This document shows positions 1,782 to 8,235 of a stretch of DNA of 8,803 bases, in pieces. The stretch spans positions 1 through 8,803 of IMG/VR virus record IMGVR_UViG_2687453449_000001; one strand, given 5' to 3'. Numbering within the stretch: position 1 is the stretch's first letter; every line of letters starts with the position of its first letter. A program made the translations under genes and the position numbers. The notes under the pieces are model-generated. The model was not told where the DNA came from. It saw only the letters and a program-made list of their open reading frames with translations, and made no database searches. This DNA is from a virus. Lineage: Duplodnaviria; Heunggongvirae; Uroviricota; Caudoviricetes.

Positions 1782-1808
1782 AAAAAATAAGCCCGTGTAA
1801 GGGAGATT
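1782..1808. repeat. attL core of P2-like prophage (identical to the 3' end of the cyaR sRNA terminator)
   Basis: AAAAAATAAGCCCGTGTAAGGGAGATT is seen at 1782-1808. Its reverse complement, AATCTCCCTTACACGGGCTTATTTTTT, is the 3' terminus of E. coli CyaR (RyeE) as I recall it, which is the known P2 attachment core. Sequence to the right diverges from cyaR and leads into int (phage arm); sequence to the left is host flank. Confidence 0.75.
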
Positions 1809-1887
1809 TAGGGTGTCATCCGTAGGGGCTTTCAACGGTACAATGCGGGTTTGAGCGGCATAAATGACCACTGAAAGCCCTTAAACG

Positions 1888-2901
1888 TTACTCTACTGTG
1901 GACACTGTGTGGACACTCTCGGCCTCAGTACCACCTCTCAGCGGATTAAGAGAAATGGCGTCCTGAAGGTACTCTGGAGCAAAATGAGCGTAAACCATAG
2001 TTTGCTCAATCCGCGTGTGACCTAGTATCCGTTGTAGCGTGATAATACTTCCTCCATTAATCATGAAATGAGTGGCAAAGCTGTGCCTTAGTGCATGTGT
2101 GGCTTGCCCCATTGGCAAATCCGGTTTTATTGCTTTCATTGTTCGTCTGAAGCGAGGGTAATCAGCATCAGGGAATAAAAAACCTCGTTTGTTATCCGCG
2201 ATCATTTTGGCAACAGCCTCTGAGATCGGGACGGTGCGTGGTTTGTTTGTTTTCGTTTTAACAAACGTGACGCGGTTATGAATGATATTTTCTGCTTTCA
2301 AACGAGCTGCTTCTCCCCAACGTGCTCCAGTACTCAGGCAAAGAATCGCAATCTTTTTGTTGTCGCCGTCAAGAGCTGCGAGCAGTAAGGCAATTTCTTC
2401 CTGCGTGAGATAGCCTGTGTCTGGTTTTTCCTCCTTAAGCCTTTTTGTCCCTCTGATAGGGTGCTCACCAAAGTATAACTCCGCTTCAATCAGGGCTGTA
2501 AACATGCCGCTAATACATGTTAAATCACGATTGATACTCGAAGGTTTAATACCCTGACTTCTTCGGGTGGCGCAGTATTGGCTGATAAGCGATTTCGTAA
2601 TTTGAAATGCGCATGGGTCATTCGTTATTTTTGTGAAGATTTCAATTTTTCCAAGATTAGATTTCCCATGCTCTTCGTGTTTACCCTTTAAATCCCACCA
2701 GATCTGTGTCAGCTCCGACAGACGTCGCTTGTCTGTTGGTTTTGATAGCCATTCTTTATTGTGGTGGTTGTACAACGTGTATTTCTCGAAAGCGACAGCT
2801 TCGCTTTTCTTATCAAACTTCCTACGGATGCGTTTTCCATTACGTCCAGTAGGGCGGATGTCCACTTCATATCGACCATCATCGAGTTTTTTGATTGCCA
2901 T
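1888..2901 (-). CDS. int: P2-type tyrosine integrase
   Basis: 337-codon minus-strand ORF: ATG at 2899-2901, TAA at 1888-1890, GGAGG 8 nt upstream. Tyrosine-recombinase signatures are present: TGARWGE (Arg box), HALRHSFAT (HxxR) and LGHTRIEQTMVYAH (catalytic Tyr). Length equals P2 Int (337 aa, from memory). Confidence 0.93.
   Translation of the reverse strand: MAIKKLDDGRYEVDIRPTGRNGKRIRRKFDKKSEAVAFEKYTLYNHHNKEWLSKPTDKRRLSELTQIWWDLKGKHEEHGKSNLGKIEIFTKITNDPCAFQITKSLISQYCATRRSQGIKPSSINRDLTCISGMFTALIEAELYFGEHPIRGTKRLKEEKPDTGYLTQEEIALLLAALDGDNKKIAILCLSTGARWGEAARLKAENIIHNRVTFVKTKTNKPRTVPISEAVAKMIADNKRGFLFPDADYPRFRRTMKAIKPDLPMGQATHALRHSFATHFMINGGSIITLQRILGHTRIEQTMVYAHFAPEYLQDAISLNPLRGGTEAESVHTVSTVE
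1897..1916. repeat. Tandem direct repeats TGTGGACAC x2 (candidate integrase arm-type binding sites)
   Basis: TGTGGACAC at 1897-1905 and 1908-1916, 11-bp period, overlapping the last codons of int. From memory, P2 Int arm sites have the consensus TGTGGACA. Not verified by search. Confidence 0.5.
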
Positions 2902-2954
2902 CAGAAAACCCTCCGAGTGGTGTGTTTTTTTGCGACTACTAATCGTTTTTTTCG

Positions 2955-2977
2955 TGGTGGCTGAAATTTAGCCACCA
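2955..2977. other. Hairpin (8-bp stem TGGTGGCT/AGCCACCA, 7-nt loop) in the C-int intergenic region
   Basis: Perfect inverted repeat seen in sequence, preceded on the plus strand by two T7 runs (2924-2930, 2946-2952). It is not followed by a U-tract on either strand, so it is not a canonical intrinsic terminator. Confidence 0.3.
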
Positions 2978-3016
2978 ATAGTAGGCACTTGTGATGAATA
3001 TATTCACGATGAATTG

Positions 3017-3316
3017 TTAACCAGTCTTTTGACCGGAGTGGGGCGACGTTGTTTCGTTTTGCCCAAAGTGTGCGAGAGCGGGCGCAATTTGCCCGGACTC
3101 AGGAGCGATCTGATTTGTCATGAACCATAAAGTGTATTTGGTGAATTGTGGGGTCTGCAGGATGTTCATCATGACATCTGTTGGAGGTGTTGAACGACCA
3201 CTTTCATAGTAACTCAGCGTGCCATACGGAACCCCTGTTAAATCAGCAAGTTGTTGTCTGCTCAAATACTCTGATTTTCGCATTAAGACTATCTTCTCGC
3301 TTATCGTGTTTGACAT
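3017..3316 (-). CDS. C: Immunity repressor C (helix-turn-helix)
   Basis: 99-codon minus-strand ORF: ATG at 3314-3316, TAA at 3017-3019. Helix-turn-helix-like segment LSRQQLADLTGVPYGTLSYYESG. Same length and position as P2 C (99 aa), upstream of and co-oriented with int. Confidence 0.9.
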   Translation of the reverse strand: MSNTISEKIVLMRKSEYLSRQQLADLTGVPYGTLSYYESGRSTPPTDVMMNILQTPQFTKYTLWFMTNQIAPESGQIAPALAHFGQNETTSPHSGQKTG

Positions 3317-3407
3317 GGTGTTTAGATCTCAATAGTATTTAGTTTAGATGTAGATTGTTTAGTGCTTGGATGTGGGCACTAAAAGGCATTATAAGGCATT
3401 AAACGCA
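3310..3407. promoter_or_regulatory. Lysis-lysogeny switch: face-to-face Pe (rightward) and Pc (leftward) promoters with C operators and cox boxes
   Basis: Seen: TTGACA at 3310-3315, a 17-bp spacer, then TAGTAT at 3333-3338 on the plus strand (candidate Pe). The 8-bp direct repeat GTTTAGAT at 3320-3327 and 3342-3349 (22 bp centre to centre) flanks that -10, as described for P2 operators O1/O2. TATAAT on the minus strand (plus coordinates 3388-3393) is the candidate Pc -10, embedded in three tandem 9-bp repeats TAAAAGGCA, TATAAGGCA, TTAAACGCA (3380-3407) that fit the P2 cox-box consensus TTAAA(G/C)NCA. Promoter and operator identities are by analogy with P2. Confidence 0.6.
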
Positions 3408-3430
3408 ATTCATGAGGGCTGGAGGACGAC

Positions 3431-3706
3431 ATGAGCAAGCAAGTAACACTCATGACTGATGCGATTCCTTATCAGGAGTTCGCAAAACTAATAGGAAAAT
3501 CGACAGGAGCGGTTCGTCGGATGATCGATAAAGGAAAGCTGCCTGTAATTGATATGACCGATCCACAATCAGCTTCAGGTCGTGCAGGTGAATATTGGGT
3601 ATATCTTCCGGCATGGAATAACGGACTAAAACTGGCTTATGAAAGCCGCCCTAAAGAGATTCGTGACGGCTGGTTGATGTGGTTAGGTCTTGGTGAACCA
3701 CGTTAA
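3431..3706 (+). CDS. cox: Cox (excision directionality factor and Pc repressor)
   Basis: 91-codon ORF: ATG at 3431, GGAGG 5 nt upstream, TAA at 3704-3706. Same length and position as P2 Cox. Small basic protein with a helix-turn-helix-like segment. Confidence 0.9.
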   Translation: MSKQVTLMTDAIPYQEFAKLIGKSTGAVRRMIDKGKLPVIDMTDPQSASGRAGEYWVYLPAWNNGLKLAYESRPKEIRDGWLMWLGLGEPR

Positions 3707-3716
3707 GGAGAACCGT

Positions 3717-3887
3717 ATGAATGAGCCTCGTTGTATTGCTCAGTTATTGCGTAACGAAAGCCCCAGGGCGATTGACTTCACCATCACCCACGGTAAGGGG
3801 CGTAAGGGAATCATTATCCGCACCAAAAAACAGAGTCCGTTAAAAAAGGTTCTGACCTTTCTGAAAAGCCGGAGGGTATGGAAATGA
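3717..3887 (+). CDS. Small early protein of unknown function (P2 orf78 position)
   Basis: ATG at 3717 with AAGGAG 7 nt upstream; 56 codons; its TGA (3885-3887) overlaps the B start as ATGA. The ORF-track start at 3690 is a TTG with no ribosome-binding site. Confidence 0.6.
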   Translation: MNEPRCIAQLLRNESPRAIDFTITHGKGRKGIIIRTKKQSPLKKVLTFLKSRRVWK

Positions 3888-4384
3888 CAGTGATGACGCT
3901 CAATCTCGTTGAAAAACAGCCAACAACTATGCGCCGGATAATTGGTAAGCATCTGGCCGTCCCTCGCTGGCAGGAGACATGCGATTATTATAATCAGATG
4001 ATGGAACGCGAACGGTTAACGGTTTGCTTCCATGCGCAGTTAAAACAACGTCACGCAACGATGCGTTTTGAAGAAATGAACGACGTCGAACGTGAACGGC
4101 TGGTTTGTGCAATTGATGAATTGCGTGGGGCATTCTCAAAACGCCGTCAGGTTGGCGCAAGTGAGTATGCATATATTAGTTTTTTAACAGTCAGTCAGCG
4201 TCGCACTTTATTTATGCATGCCGGATTGACTGAAAAAGAATTTAACCAGCCATACTGGCGAATTAATGAGGAATCATGTTACTGGCGTGATGCTTTATTC
4301 CGTGCATTACGTGAATTATTCAGTCTGTTTGAGTATGCGCCGACAATTCTGACGTCGGTAAAACCAGAGCAATATCTGCATTAA
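3884..4384 (+). CDS. B: Replication protein B (DnaB-helicase-associated early protein)
   Basis: ATG at 3884 lies 8 nt after GGAGG (3871-3875) and gives 166 codons, the length I recall for P2 B. The ATG at 3878 is only 2 nt from the Shine-Dalgarno sequence, so it is disfavoured. TAA at 4382-4384. Confidence 0.8.
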   Translation: MTVMTLNLVEKQPTTMRRIIGKHLAVPRWQETCDYYNQMMERERLTVCFHAQLKQRHATMRFEEMNDVERERLVCAIDELRGAFSKRRQVGASEYAYISFLTVSQRRTLFMHAGLTEKEFNQPYWRINEESCYWRDALFRALRELFSLFEYAPTILTSVKPEQYLH

Positions 4385-4447
4385 GTAATTAACCAGAGTT
4401 TTTAACGCACTTAATCGTGCGGGGCTTCTTTTTGCCTGGAGAAAGTC

Positions 4448-4672
4448 ATGCATACAGTTTCTGAAAATCAGTTCGGTAAATACGCATTACTACTGCAACA
4501 GGCCAGAACCGAAGCACAGGCCGACGCTGCGACGCGCTTTTCTTCTCATCTTGACGCCATGATTCGCCACATCACAAAGGCGGAGTTATCCCGCGTGGAG
4601 ATAGTCGAGCTGCTCAGTCAGGAGTCGGAAAAATTTCACAACATCGGATTGTCTCGCGGGGAGGTGCTTTGA
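4448..4672 (+). CDS. Hypothetical early protein (P2 orf80 position)
   Basis: 74 codons; ATG at 4448 with GGAGA 5 nt upstream; its TGA overlaps the next start (TGATG). No recognisable motif. Confidence 0.65.
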
Positions 4673-4974
4673 TGTCCTGTTCTCGTTCAGTTGTTTTACT
4701 GAACAATGCCTTAAAAATCGTCGTTATGAAAAATGGCGATTTGTCTCTTATTCAACTTGGTCTTGATAAAGAAAAACGCGAAATAACTGAATCTGTTATC
4801 GCGATTTATCAGAGTGAATTAAACCTCCTGTCTGATGTGGTCAATTTACTTGTTAAACGCGCTGTATTTCACAAGCAAATTTCCTCCGTGGATGAACTGA
4901 CAAAATTAACGACAGAAATCGCCAGCTATTGCGCTGATGAATTTAAGAAACTGAACGACAAAAGGAGCTGGTAA
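4672..4974 (+). CDS. Hypothetical early protein, compositionally foreign (AT-rich)
   Basis: ATG at 4672 with GGAGG 8 nt upstream; 100 codons; TAA at 4972-4974 overlaps the next start (TAATG). GC is ~35-38% by hand count, against ~48-60% in the flanking phage genes. No recognisable motif. Confidence 0.65.
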   Translation: MSCSRSVVLLNNALKIVVMKNGDLSLIQLGLDKEKREITESVIAIYQSELNLLSDVVNLLVKRAVFHKQISSVDELTKLTTEIASYCADEFKKLNDKRSW

Positions 4975-5198
4975 TGCCGGACAACGTGGATTTTATTCAG
5001 GAACAACAGGCTGAATTACTGGAGCGCCAGATTAACGCGGCAAGGGTAAAACATTGCGGTGCTTCTGCGCTGGTTTGCGAAGAGTGTGACGCGCCAATAC
5101 CTGCTGCCCGTCGTGCGGCTTATCCGTCAGCCACGCGTTGTGTTTCCTGTCAGTCAGTCTTTGAAGCAAAAAACAAACATTACCGGAGAATGGCATGA
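4974..5198 (+). CDS. TraR/DksA-family C4 zinc-finger protein
   Basis: 74 codons; ATG at 4974 with AAGGAG 6 nt upstream. Two CxxC pairs (VCEEC ... RCVSC) about 17 residues apart, typical of the zf-DksA/TraR family carried by many phages. Confidence 0.75.
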   Translation: MPDNVDFIQEQQAELLERQINAARVKHCGASALVCEECDAPIPAARRAAYPSATRCVSCQSVFEAKNKHYRRMA

Positions 5199-5470
5199 GC
5201 ATTCGTATTGAAATTGGCGAACGTTATGTCGTTACCAGTGACAGTTTTCAGTTTATTCTCCACGAGAAAAAGAGAGCGGAAAGTGGTAAAAACGCCGGTC
5301 AGGAGTGGCTGGCGGTGGTTGGTTATTACCCGAAATTAAGCCAGCTCGTTTCCGGCCTGATGCATCACGATATTCTGACCGGAAGCGCAAAGTCTTTTGC
5401 TGATTTAAACGCGCAGGTTGAGCAACTCAGCAGGCGTTGTTCAGAGGCTTTTGGCTCACATGGCCGTTAA
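5195..5470 (+). CDS. Hypothetical early protein (P2 orf83 position)
   Basis: 91 codons; ATG at 5195 overlaps the previous stop (ATGA), GGAG 6 nt upstream; TAA at 5468-5470 lies 11 nt inside the A coding sequence. Confidence 0.65.
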   Translation: MSIRIEIGERYVVTSDSFQFILHEKKRAESGKNAGQEWLAVVGYYPKLSQLVSGLMHHDILTGSAKSFADLNAQVEQLSRRCSEAFGSHGR

Positions 5471-7694
5471 AGCCTCCGGGCGTTTTGTCCCTCCGTCAGC
5501 ATTTGCCGCAGGCACCGGTAAGACGTTTACCGGTGCTTATGCATGGAACGCGCCACGCGAGGCTGTCGGGCGCGAAAGACCCCTTACACGTGACGAGATG
5601 CGTCAGGTGCAAGGTGTTTTATCCACGATTAACCGCCTGCCTTACTTTTTGCGCTCGCTGTTTACTTCACGCTATGACTACATCCGGCGCAATAAAAGCC
5701 CGGTGCACGGGTTTTATTTCCTCACATCCACTTTTCAGCGCCGTTTATGGCCGCGTATTGAGCGCGTGAATCAGCGCCATGAAATGAACACCGACGCGTC
5801 GTTGCTGTTTCTGGCAGAGCGTGACCATTATGCGCGTCTGCCGGGGATGAATGACAAGGAGCTGAAAAAGTTTGCTGCCCGTATCTCATCGCAGCTTTTC
5901 ATGATGTATGAGGAACTCTGCGATGCCTGGGTTGATGCACATGGCGAAAAAGAATTGCTGTTTACGGATGAGGCGCAGGCGCATCTGTATGGTCATGTTG
6001 CTGGCGCTGCACGTGCTTTCAATATTTCCCCGCTCTACTGGAAAAAATACCGTAAAGGACAGATGACCACGAGGCAGGCATATTCTGCCATTGCCCGCCT
6101 GTTTAACGATGAGTGGTGGACTCATCAGCTTAAAGGCCAGCGTATGCGCTGGCATGAGGCGTTACTGATTGCTGTCGGGGAGGTCAATAAAGACCGTTCT
6201 CCTTATGCCAGTAAACATGCCATTCGTGATGTGCGTGCACGCCGCCAGGCAAATCTGGAATTTCTTAAATCGTGTGACCTTGAAAACAGGGAAACCGGCG
6301 AGCGCATCGACCTTATCAGTAAGGTGATGGGCAGTATTTCTAATCCTGAAATTCGCCGGATGGAGCTGATGAACACCATTGCCGGTATTGAGCGTTACGC
6401 CGCCGCAGAGGGTGATGTGGGGATGTTTATCACGCTGACCGCGCCGTCAAAGTATCACCCGACACGTCAGGTCGGAAAAGGCGAAAGTAAAACCGTTCAG
6501 CTTAATCACGGCTGGAACGATGAGGCATTTAATCCAAAGGATGCGCAGCGTTATCTCTGCCGTATCTGGAGCCTGATGCGCACGGCATTCAAGGATAATG
6601 ATTTACAGGTCTACGGTTTGCGAGTCGTCGAGCCACACCACGACGGAACGCCGCACTGGCATATGATGCTTTTTTGTAATCCACGCCAGCGTAACCAGAT
6701 TATCGAAATCATACGTCGCTATGCGCTCAAAGAGGATGGCGACGAAAGAGGAGCCGCGCGAAACCGTTTTCAGGCAAAACATCTTAACCGGGGCGGTGCT
6801 GCGGGGTATATCGCGAAATACATCTCAAAAAACATCGATGGCTATGCACTGGATGGTCAGCTCGATAACGATACCGGCAGGCCGCTGAAAGATACTGCTG
6901 CGGCTGTTACCGCATGGGCGTCAACGTGGCGCATTCCGCAATTTAAAACGGTTGGTCTGCCGACAATGGGGGCTTACCGTGAACTACGCAAATTGCCTCG
7001 CGGCGTCAGCATTGCTGATGAGTTTGACGAGCGCGTCGAGGCTGCACGCGCCGCTGCAGACAGTGGTGATTTTGCGTTGTATATCAGCGCGCAGGGCGGG
7101 GCAAATGTCCCGCGCGATTGTCAGACTGTCAGGGTCGCCCGTAGCCCGTCGGATGACGTTAACGAGTACGAGGAAGAAGTCGAGAGAGTGGTCGGCATTT
7201 ACGCGCCGCATCTCGGCGCGCGTCATATTCATATCACCAGAACGACGGACTGGCGTATTGTGCCGAAAGTTCCGGTCGTTGAGCCTTTGACTTTAAAAAG
7301 CGGCATCGCCGCGCCTCGGAGTCCTGTCAATAACTGTGGAAAGCTCACCGGTGGTGATACTTCGTCACCGGCTCCCACGCCTTCTGAACACGCCGCAGCA
7401 GTGCTTAATCTGGTAGATGACGGTGTTATCGAATGGAATGACCAGGAGGTCGTGAGGGCGCTCAGAGGTGCATTAAAACACGGTCTGAGAAGACCAAACC
7501 GTCAGCAAAGAAACGGAAGCCCGTTAAAACCGCATGAAATAGCGCCATCGGCCAGACTGACTCGGTCGGAACGAATGCAAATTACCCGTATCCGCGTTGA
7601 CCTTGCTCAGAACGGTATCAGGCCACAGCGATGGGAGCTTGAGGCGCTGGCGCGTGGCGCGACCGTAAATTATGACGGGAAAAAATTCGCTTAA
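5460..7694 (+). CDS. A: Rolling-circle replication initiator A (HUH endonuclease)
   Basis: 744 codons from ATG 5460 to TAA 7692-7694. HUH motif PHWHMML at codons 398-404. Paired tyrosines in GYIAKYISK fall at codons 450 and 454 counting from this ATG, the same positions I recall for the P2 A catalytic tyrosines, which supports this start over the TTG at 5418 used by the ORF track. Confidence 0.9.
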   Translation: MAVKASGRFVPPSAFAAGTGKTFTGAYAWNAPREAVGRERPLTRDEMRQVQGVLSTINRLPYFLRSLFTSRYDYIRRNKSPVHGFYFLTSTFQRRLWPRIERVNQRHEMNTDASLLFLAERDHYARLPGMNDKELKKFAARISSQLFMMYEELCDAWVDAHGEKELLFTDEAQAHLYGHVAGAARAFNISPLYWKKYRKGQMTTRQAYSAIARLFNDEWWTHQLKGQRMRWHEALLIAVGEVNKDRSPYASKHAIRDVRARRQANLEFLKSCDLENRETGERIDLISKVMGSISNPEIRRMELMNTIAGIERYAAAEGDVGMFITLTAPSKYHPTRQVGKGESKTVQLNHGWNDEAFNPKDAQRYLCRIWSLMRTAFKDNDLQVYGLRVVEPHHDGTPHWHMMLFCNPRQRNQIIEIIRRYALKEDGDERGAARNRFQAKHLNRGGAAGYIAKYISKNIDGYALDGQLDNDTGRPLKDTAAAVTAWASTWRIPQFKTVGLPTMGAYRELRKLPRGVSIADEFDERVEAARAAADSGDFALYISAQGGANVPRDCQTVRVARSPSDDVNEYEEEVERVVGIYAPHLGARHIHITRTTDWRIVPKVPVVEPLTLKSGIAAPRSPVNNCGKLTGGDTSSPAPTPSEHAAAVLNLVDDGVIEWNDQEVVRALRGALKHGLRRPNRQQRNGSPLKPHEIAPSARLTRSERMQITRIRVDLAQNGIRPQRWELEALARGATVNYDGKKFA
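7311..7330 (+). other. Candidate ori / A-protein nick region inside the A coding sequence
   Basis: GCGCCTCGGAGTCCTGTCAA is seen at 7311-7330. From memory this matches the P2 origin nick region, which is known to lie within the 3' part of gene A. Recall-based; needs alignment to confirm. Confidence 0.4.
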
Positions 7695-7794: not shown

Positions 7795-8235
7795 ATGATG
7801 ACGCTGATTATTCCGCGAAAGGAGGCTCCTGTATCCGGTGAGGGTACGGTGGTCATCCCGCAACCGGCAGGCGACGAGCCGGTGATTAAAAACACGTTCT
7901 TTTTTCCCGATATCGACCCGAAGCGCGTCCGGGAACGTATGCGCCTTGAGCAGACCGTCGCCCCCGCCCGTCTGCGTGAGGCCATCAAGTCAGGCATGGC
8001 GGAGACGAATGCGGAGCTGTACGAGTACCGCGAACAGAAAATTGCCGCCGGTTTTACGCGTCTGGCGGACGTCCCGGCGGACGACATCGACGGTGAAAGC
8101 ATCAGGGTTTTTTACTACGAGCGCGCTGTGTGTGCGATGGCGACCGCGTCGCTTTATGAGCGTTATCGCGGCGTGGATGCCAGTGCGAAAACTGCTGTTT
8201 CTCAAAGCGGGGCAGGGGGTGACGGCCAGCGGTAA
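7795..8235 (+). pseudogene. L: Truncated head completion/stabilisation gene L fragment (L')
   Basis: ATG-ATG at 7795 with GAGG upstream. Translation MMTLIIPRKEAPVSGEGTVVIPQPAGDEPVIKNTFFFPDIDPKRVRERMRLEQTVAPARLREAIKSG... matches my recollection of P2-family gpL up to about ...YRGVDASAK (~8190). The last 14 codons (TAVSQSGAGGDGQR) are an out-of-frame read of D sequence. 146 codons against ~169 for intact L. Confidence 0.6.

Follow-up and report, generated by a model that had tools for sequence, protein, structure and literature searches.

A sequence-intact P2 immunity switch in a deletion-crippled prophage of Escherichia coli

The region between the genes C and cox in the stretch of DNA analysed here (8,803 nucleotides, from here on the window) is the immunity class I switch of bacteriophage P2. 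It is intact in sequence and lies in a deletion-crippled P2 prophage at yegS/yegR of the E. coli chromosome CP013048.1. We give this reading a probability of roughly 0.93. Judged by its sequence, the switch is P2's own and goes beyond being merely P2-like. It is an already known switch, and the copy in the window is a common natural allele, not a new one.

The P2 switch is among the best-characterised phage switches: its promoters and operators have been mapped, and the structures of both repressors have been solved. For the P2 sequence it is a published experimental fact that C represses Pe and Cox represses Pc (PMC1904263, PMC3936717, PMC2995052). An earlier note, made from the letters of the window, had proposed this architecture for the region. 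The match is more literal than proposed, with elements and proteins identical to those of P2, and the switch is probably functional in the source strain.

Results

Identity of the switch region

The window is an exact substring of the E. coli chromosome CP013048.1, whose strain is reported to be avian pathogenic, O7:HNT and ST73 (PMC4732331). In a sensitive search of 50,697 phage records the best phage match is P2 (AF063097 / NC_001895), with 99.2% identity over 851 bases. Direct alignment of window positions 3290-3445 with P2 (156 bases) leaves two differences, at 3396 and 3421, and both lie outside all promoter hexamers and operator repeats. The six promoter and operator elements annotated in AF063097 (Pe -35 and -10, O1, O2, Pc -10 and -35) map onto the window with zero changes (Table 1), and the start codons of C and cox coincide with the P2 annotation as well. 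In the sequence we find no evidence against an identity with the P2 switch. The immunity type of P2 Hy dis and E. coli B was considered separately and is ruled out, the best phage matches being P2 itself at 99.2%.

The gene order is C, leftward from Pc, and cox, rightward from Pe. As in P2 class I, a C gene for a helix-turn-helix repressor (99 aa) and a cox gene (91 aa) diverge from a spacer of about 110 bp, which here measures 114 bp. Both proteins are of the P2 specificity class, each being 100% identical to its P2 counterpart. The third mark of the class is present too: two 8-bp repeats GTTTAGAT stand around the Pe -10, 22 bp apart from centre to centre.

C differs from P2 by one nucleotide, cox by two, and all three differences are synonymous. 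The C protein matches the 'C protein' structures PDB 2L49/2XCJ over its full length (E 6e-64), and Cox matches PDB 4LHF over its full length (E 4e-60). Int, encoded downstream of C, has two amino-acid differences from P2 Int; in P2, repression of Pc by Cox governs both C and Int (PMC3936717). The ten reading frames between int and A, these two included, are all open; in A the last 19 codons are lost, with other residues in their place.

Table 1. Coordinates of the switch elements, the adjoining genes and attL in the window
Feature	Position	Strand	Basis and P2 counterpart
attL (28-bp core 1782-1809 and second Cox-binding region 1825-1898)	1782..1898	.	identity to P2 attP core; P2 Cox protein_bind 24399-24472
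int, downstream of C in the Pc operon	1888..2901	-	intact ORF, 337 aa; P2 annotation
C, immunity repressor, 99 aa, first gene of the leftward Pc operon	3017..3316	-	intact ORF; gpC in AF063097; Pfam HTH_3
Pe -35 TTGACA	3310..3315	+	promoter scan; P2 25884-25889 'minus_35_signal early promoter Pe'; identical to P2
O1, C-repressor half-site GTTTAGAT	3320..3327	+	exact 8-mer; P2 25894-25901 'O1 repressor binding site'
Pe -10 TAGTAT	3333..3338	+	promoter scan; P2 25907-25912; identical to P2
O2, C-repressor half-site GTTTAGAT	3342..3349	+	exact 8-mer; P2 25916-25923 'O2 repressor binding site'
Approximate Pe/Pc transcript overlap zone	3345..3381	.	ends inferred from -10 positions; sequence identical to P2
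Three phased cox-box-like 9-mers, predicted Cox operator over Pc	3380..3407	+	consensus TTAAA(G/C)NC(A/C)
Cox-box-like 9-mer TAAAAGGCA	3380-3388	+	7/8 specified positions
Pc -10 TATAAT (ATTATA on the + strand)	3388..3393	-	sequence; P2 25962-25967 'minus_10_signal Pc promoter'
Cox-box-like 9-mer TATAAGGCA	3390-3398	+	6/8 specified positions
Cox-box-like 9-mer TTAAACGCA	3399-3407	+	8/8 specified positions
Pc -35 ATGAAT, 3/6, weak promoter	3408..3413	-	as annotated in P2, 25982-25987
cox ribosome-binding site GGAGG (P2: AGAGG)	3421..3425	+	P2 alignment; 3421 A>G
cox, first gene of the rightward Pe operon, 91 aa; Pc repressor and excision directionality factor	3431..3706	+	intact ORF; Pfam Phage_Cox

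The early promoter and the C operator

The rightward promoter described in the earlier note is present as claimed. TTGACA overlaps the start codon of C, which reads CAT at 3314-3316 on the plus strand, and is separated from TAGTAT by a 17-bp spacer. Between positions 2900 and 3800 this is the sole sigma-70-like site, with 10 of 12 consensus matches in the promoter scan. One such match per 900 bp is not significant on its own, the shuffled average being 1.3. We do not use the promoter and terminator scan as evidence of significance, because its hits are no more frequent than in shuffles.

The operator is more specific. The 8-bp direct repeats reported to flank the rightward -10 are indeed there, and they are the only two exact copies of GTTTAGAT in the 8.8-kb window, 22 bp apart from start to start. 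The P2 repressor C, a helix-turn-helix dimer, recognises a pair of 8-bp direct repeats that are not palindromic and span the Pe -10. The centres of O1 and O2 are 22 nt apart, the half-sites are two helical turns apart, and both are required (PMC1904263, PMC2995052). When O1 of P2 is mutated from GTTTAGAT to ATCCGAGT, C binding and repression are lost (PMC1904263). The left primer of the published fragment for operator mobility-shift assays, GCATTAAGACTATCTTCTC, matches the window exactly at 3280-3298.

Two further resemblances occur around the operator. The reverse complement of the C half-sites reads CTAAAC and resembles a reversed cox-box, with 7 of 8 positions at 3317-3325 and 6 of 8 at 3339-3347. 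At 16 bp past O2 there is also an imperfect third repeat, GTTTAGTG (3358-3363, entered on the minus strand). Both might have a connection with the spread of Cox onto Pe described in the literature, and with a fourth C-protected patch downstream of O2.

A separate observation concerns the E. coli strain CM2 (NZ_CP114891.1, our match H95), which has 56 bp at 100% identity to window 3299-3354 only, that is, Pe with O1 and O2. The fragment occurs at two places in the 4.58-Mb genome; both copies are unannotated and have no adjoining match to C or cox. They may be an engineered or isolated promoter fragment.

The lysogenic promoter, the cox-boxes and the transcript overlap

On the opposite strand, the sequence bears out the perfect TATAAT that had been noticed at 3388-3393 pointing towards C. 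The hexamer annotated as the Pc -35 in P2 is a poor one, and in the P2 GenBank record only 14 bp separate it from the -10, which is atypical. No better Pc -35 is found at 16-18 bp from the -10, and the scan of 2900-3800 returned no minus-strand promoter at all. All four Pe and Pc hexamers are identical to the P2 annotation, including those of Pc that the consensus scan missed. Pc appears to rely on its perfect -10 alone. In P2 it is weaker than Pe (PMC1904263).

The predicted Cox operator lies over Pc. With the consensus TTAAA(G/C)NC(A/C) (PMC3936717), three cox-box-like 9-mers can be recognised (Table 1). The earlier note had described three such 9-mers in tandem over the leftward -10. The coverage stands, and it extends up to the annotated -35. 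The boxes are not strictly tandem, since they are spaced by 10 and 9 bp. In P2, cox-boxes are phased at 10-11 bp, cover the Pc -10 and -35, and number at least six per target (PMC3936717). Near Pc, three clear phased boxes are present (at 3380, 3390 and 3399), and further ones are too degenerate to call from the sequence. The published Cox footprint should apply here, as the sequence equals that of P2 save for one N position.

Single cox-box matches are uninformative: across the window we find 40, with 26 expected. We replaced the count of degenerate single boxes with a phasing criterion, namely triplets on the same strand at 9-11 bp. By this criterion the window has two phased triplets, one at Pc and one at the Cox site beside attL.

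It might be argued that all of these elements are chance matches to consensus motifs in an AT-rich spacer and have no regulatory function. The sigma-70-like match does occur at the shuffle level, cox-box-like 9-mers are frequent across the window, and an isolated TATAAT is not unusual where the spacer is AT-rich. Against this, the elements match experimentally mapped P2 elements base for base, the exact 8-mer pair is confined to the switch within the window, and the cognate proteins are encoded unchanged on both sides. The identity with P2 effectively refutes a chance origin, to which we assign a negligible probability. Near-identity to the annotated P2 switch, the exact 8-mer pair and the phased cox-box triplets together place the switch beyond chance.

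The transcripts from the two promoters had been expected to overlap. In P2 they do so by about 35 nt according to primer extension (PMC1904263), and the corresponding zone in the window is identical in sequence. An 8-bp inverted repeat has its arms at 3358-3365 and 3376-3383. Folding of 3345-3435 gave no significant RNA structure (z = -1.4).

Expected operation of the switch

The mechanism worked out for P2 can be laid over the elements in Table 1. The weak leftward Pc would transcribe C and int. C dimers would bind cooperatively to the two direct half-sites bracketing the -10 of the strong rightward Pe, and this binding would silence cox, orf78, B, orf80-83 and A. Should Pe escape, Cox would oligomerise on the phased cox-boxes over the Pc -10 and -35, shut off C and int, and direct excision at attL. 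The two promoters face each other, and some 35 nt of their transcripts would overlap.

The Cox protein of P2 has a winged-helix fold, forms multimers and protects 70 bp or more. When its concentration is high it extends towards Pe and thereby regulates itself, and at the att sites it acts as the excision directionality factor (PMC3936717).

From the identity of elements and proteins with P2, we infer that the same mechanism operates in the source strain, with active promoters, bound repressors and immunity. The stable state expected in the host has C on and Pe off, which would confer immunity to P2-class phages. A flip of the switch would lead at most to excision and perhaps to replication. 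No virions are possible, because cos and the head, tail and lysis genes have been deleted.

The prophage remnant

The phage had been called defective, and so it is: two deletions have removed cos and nearly all late genes. The P2 segment 24356-30262, which starts at the attP core and stops shortly before gene A ends, aligns without gaps to window 1782-7688 at 97.6% identity. After A the window continues with P2 5897-6395 (the end of M and part of L) and then with P2 23335-23954 (the C-terminal part of D). Lost from the remnant are cos, the packaging, head, lysis and tail genes, and orf91/tin/old. The element is thus not a complete, plaque-forming P2 prophage, which would carry cos and the head, tail and lysis operons between A and ogr. 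It occupies the yegS/yegR attachment site; ogr and the attR core follow in the larger locus, and 7,451 bp lie between the att cores. The 28-bp core of attL has the same sequence as the attP core of P2, and a second copy forms attR (13746-13773 in the larger locus, L003).

At the first junction (window 7688-7691), A (P2 30262) is followed by two extra bases, GC, and then by P2 5897 (end of M, start of L). At the second (window 8184-8190), L (P2 6395) passes into D (P2 23335) at a short GAAA-type microhomology. Both junctions are absent from the other genomes searched: 5,426 complete E. coli genomes, GTDB representative genomes (two scans) and JGI metagenomes. In an exact-protein look-up, the truncated A protein is recorded on one contig only, the source.

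E. coli K-12 presumably carries a comparable P2 remnant, yegZ/ogrK beside yegR-yegS. We take it to be decayed by deletion at the yegS/yegR-yegQ site, to keep part of D, ogr and attR, and to be without int, C, the switch, cox and the replication genes. Set against this assumed K-12 remnant, the one in CP013048.1 still has them all.

Several features of the remnant lie apart from the switch. The boxes of the Cox target at attL face both ways, with those at 1826 and 1846 on the minus strand and those at 1861, 1872 and 1881 on the plus strand (triplet 1861-1889). Just outside this second Cox target, at 1821, the window carries a private substitution. Differences from P2 cluster at 7282-7688, with 29 in about 400 bp (roughly 7%, versus 2-3% elsewhere); among them is a run of residues changed in the A protein, 661-678. 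Such clustering points to a patch of mosaic recombination close to the 3' end of gene A.

Related prophages at yegS/yegR differ in the cargo directly past gene A (L009-L011 at about 9440-11900, L013 at 9052-11194, and H32). They carry reverse-transcriptase genes, SIR2 and ATPase genes, or the cytolethal distending toxin genes cdtABC. This variable cargo spot is the position of orf91/tin/old in P2, and in the window the whole region is deleted.

Switch alleles in the population

Among 5,426 complete E. coli genomes, 405 carry the 166-bp switch at an identity of at least 98%, and several of these match it at 100%. For a closer comparison we used 12 sequences: the window, P2 and ten related prophages, all at yegS/yegR. 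We call an allele of the window private when it is missing from the 11 comparators, which are a subset of the more than 600 related prophages.

In this sample seven spacer positions segregate (3317, 3341, 3350, 3375, 3396, 3421 and 3423), and none falls within the 40 hexamer and operator positions, an outcome with a chance of about 0.06 by our own estimate. Such avoidance is suggestive of constraint in the phage population and of no more than that. Nucleotide diversity is 1.8% in the switch spacer versus 0.2-0.3% in C and cox; the spacer value is biased downward, some sequences having been chosen by similarity to the switch itself.

Both spacer differences from P2 are A>G changes. The one at 3396 affects the N of the middle cox-box, which the consensus leaves unspecified, and lies 3 bp upstream of the Pc -10; the one at 3421 turns AGAGG into GGAGG in the cox ribosome-binding site. 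The G allele at 3421 is common to five of the 11 comparison sequences (L004, L005, L006, L011 and L013). Across the 12 sequences the alleles at the two positions are always paired, as a G/G or an A/A haplotype. The switch of the window is one of the standing haplotypes and is shared at 100% with prophages in other genomes.

These two differences could shift the balance of the switch slightly, and both are common natural alleles. In a stronger form of this idea the switch would be intact in sequence and altered in function: G at 3421, with a better Shine-Dalgarno sequence for cox, and G at 3396, at -15 of Pc, would tilt the switch towards Cox and leave the repressed state less stable than in reference P2. 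In its favour, both changes lie in the Pc-proximal half of the spacer, and the two are invariably found together in the 12 sequences. Against it, the G/G haplotype is common among apparently ordinary prophages, 3396 is a position that the cox-box leaves unspecified, and neither allele makes a TG extended -10. We consider such an alteration very improbable and keep to the reading of an ordinary P2 switch.

Selection or recent deletion

The earlier note had further suggested that the switch is under purifying selection although the phage is defective. This part of its account is not supported: in our 12-sequence sample there is no private change from int to orf78, the switch is a standing allele, and across the collections searched the layout is found in one assembly.

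The proposal deserves to be spelled out. On this view the remnant would have become defective long ago, and purifying selection would have preserved the switch together with C, and possibly all of the early region. The benefit could be the immunity to P2-class phages given by C, or it could be addiction-like, the loss of C unleashing harmful Cox, A and B. The open frames of the ten genes from int to A and the two unchanged repressor proteins speak in its favour, and the survivors form a coherent block (attL-int-C-cox-B-A plus ogr-attR) from which the late genes have been removed. The avoidance of hexamer and operator positions by the seven segregating sites has also been counted on this side. 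So have the private coding changes elsewhere in the window, 12 of which are synonymous and five non-synonymous; among 17 random changes, far fewer would be synonymous.

However, both the synonymous excess and the avoidance of operators are expected from selection on live phages and are not assignable to the period after the deletions. The excess of 12 to 5 reads as a signature of selection on working genes, from which the time after the deletions cannot be singled out, and only 11 comparators, taken from more than 600 related prophages, define these alleles as private. The spacer, moreover, is not unusually conserved when its diversity is set beside that of C and cox. In the 12-sequence sample the window has no private allele in 1888-3887 (int, C, the switch, cox and orf78). 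Hence the switch offers no measure of selection acting since the deletions and is uninformative on this point. In the collections searched the deletion layout occurs in one assembly only, so that no lineage is visible in which selection could have acted. Long maintenance of the switch by selection in the remnant seems unlikely to us.

Most likely, the switch is intact because the deletions are recent and it has not had time to decay. We prefer this as the simplest reading, on grounds of parsimony only. A recent deletion accounts for the intactness as well as selection does. A layout unique to one assembly fits a recent event. The deletions cannot be dated, because the nearest sampled relative of the early region is only 98.3% identical. 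These data speak neither for nor against long-term purifying selection on the remnant.

Discussion

The switch in the window corresponds to AF063097 25884-26004 in its 114-bp spacer, its Pe -35 and -10, its O1 and O2 at a distance of 22 bp, its Pc -10 and -35, and its cox-boxes. It differs from the reference by 3396 A>G and 3421 A>G in the spacer, by three synonymous changes in C and cox, and by its setting in a prophage that lacks cos and almost all late genes.

The heteroimmune phages W-Phi and P2 Hy dis (classes II and III) share the convergent Pe and Pc, the binding of C to direct repeats and the repression of Pc by Cox (PMC1904263, PMC1904268, PMC2995052). They differ in the sequences, lengths and spacings of the half-sites, and their C proteins are only 43-63% identical. 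The half-sites of W-Phi are 10 nt long and 34 nt apart, whereas those of P2 Hy dis span the -35 and stand 2.5 helical turns apart. On its half-sites and its C protein, the window is assigned to P2 class I and not to the classes of W-Phi or P2 Hy dis.

A more distant parallel is the CI/Apl switch of phage 186. It too is described with lytic and lysogenic promoters face to face and with a protein that is both excisionase and repressor and acts on helically phased direct repeats (PMC7498355). Its CI repressor is unrelated, its operator layout is different, and it has no sequence relationship with the spacer studied here.

The 7.45-kb remnant might also be regarded as a domesticated mini-element, kept for class I immunity against P2-type phages and perhaps still capable of excision or replication once a P4-type antirepressor, for instance, has derepressed it. 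What it retains would suit such a role: attL, attR, int, cox, B, a nearly full-length A with an internal ori, ogr, and the C/Cox switch. The positive support for domestication consists of intact reading frames only, and we hold it to be quite unlikely. The remnant is better described as a crippled P2 prophage that still carries the P2 switch.

As a discovery the finding is of small value: the observation is correct and the biology is ordinary. It does illustrate that an intact-looking regulatory region within a defective prophage is by itself no evidence of selection. Its practical use is for annotation: immunity to class I (P2-immunity) phages is predicted for the strain, together with an inability to make phage of its own.
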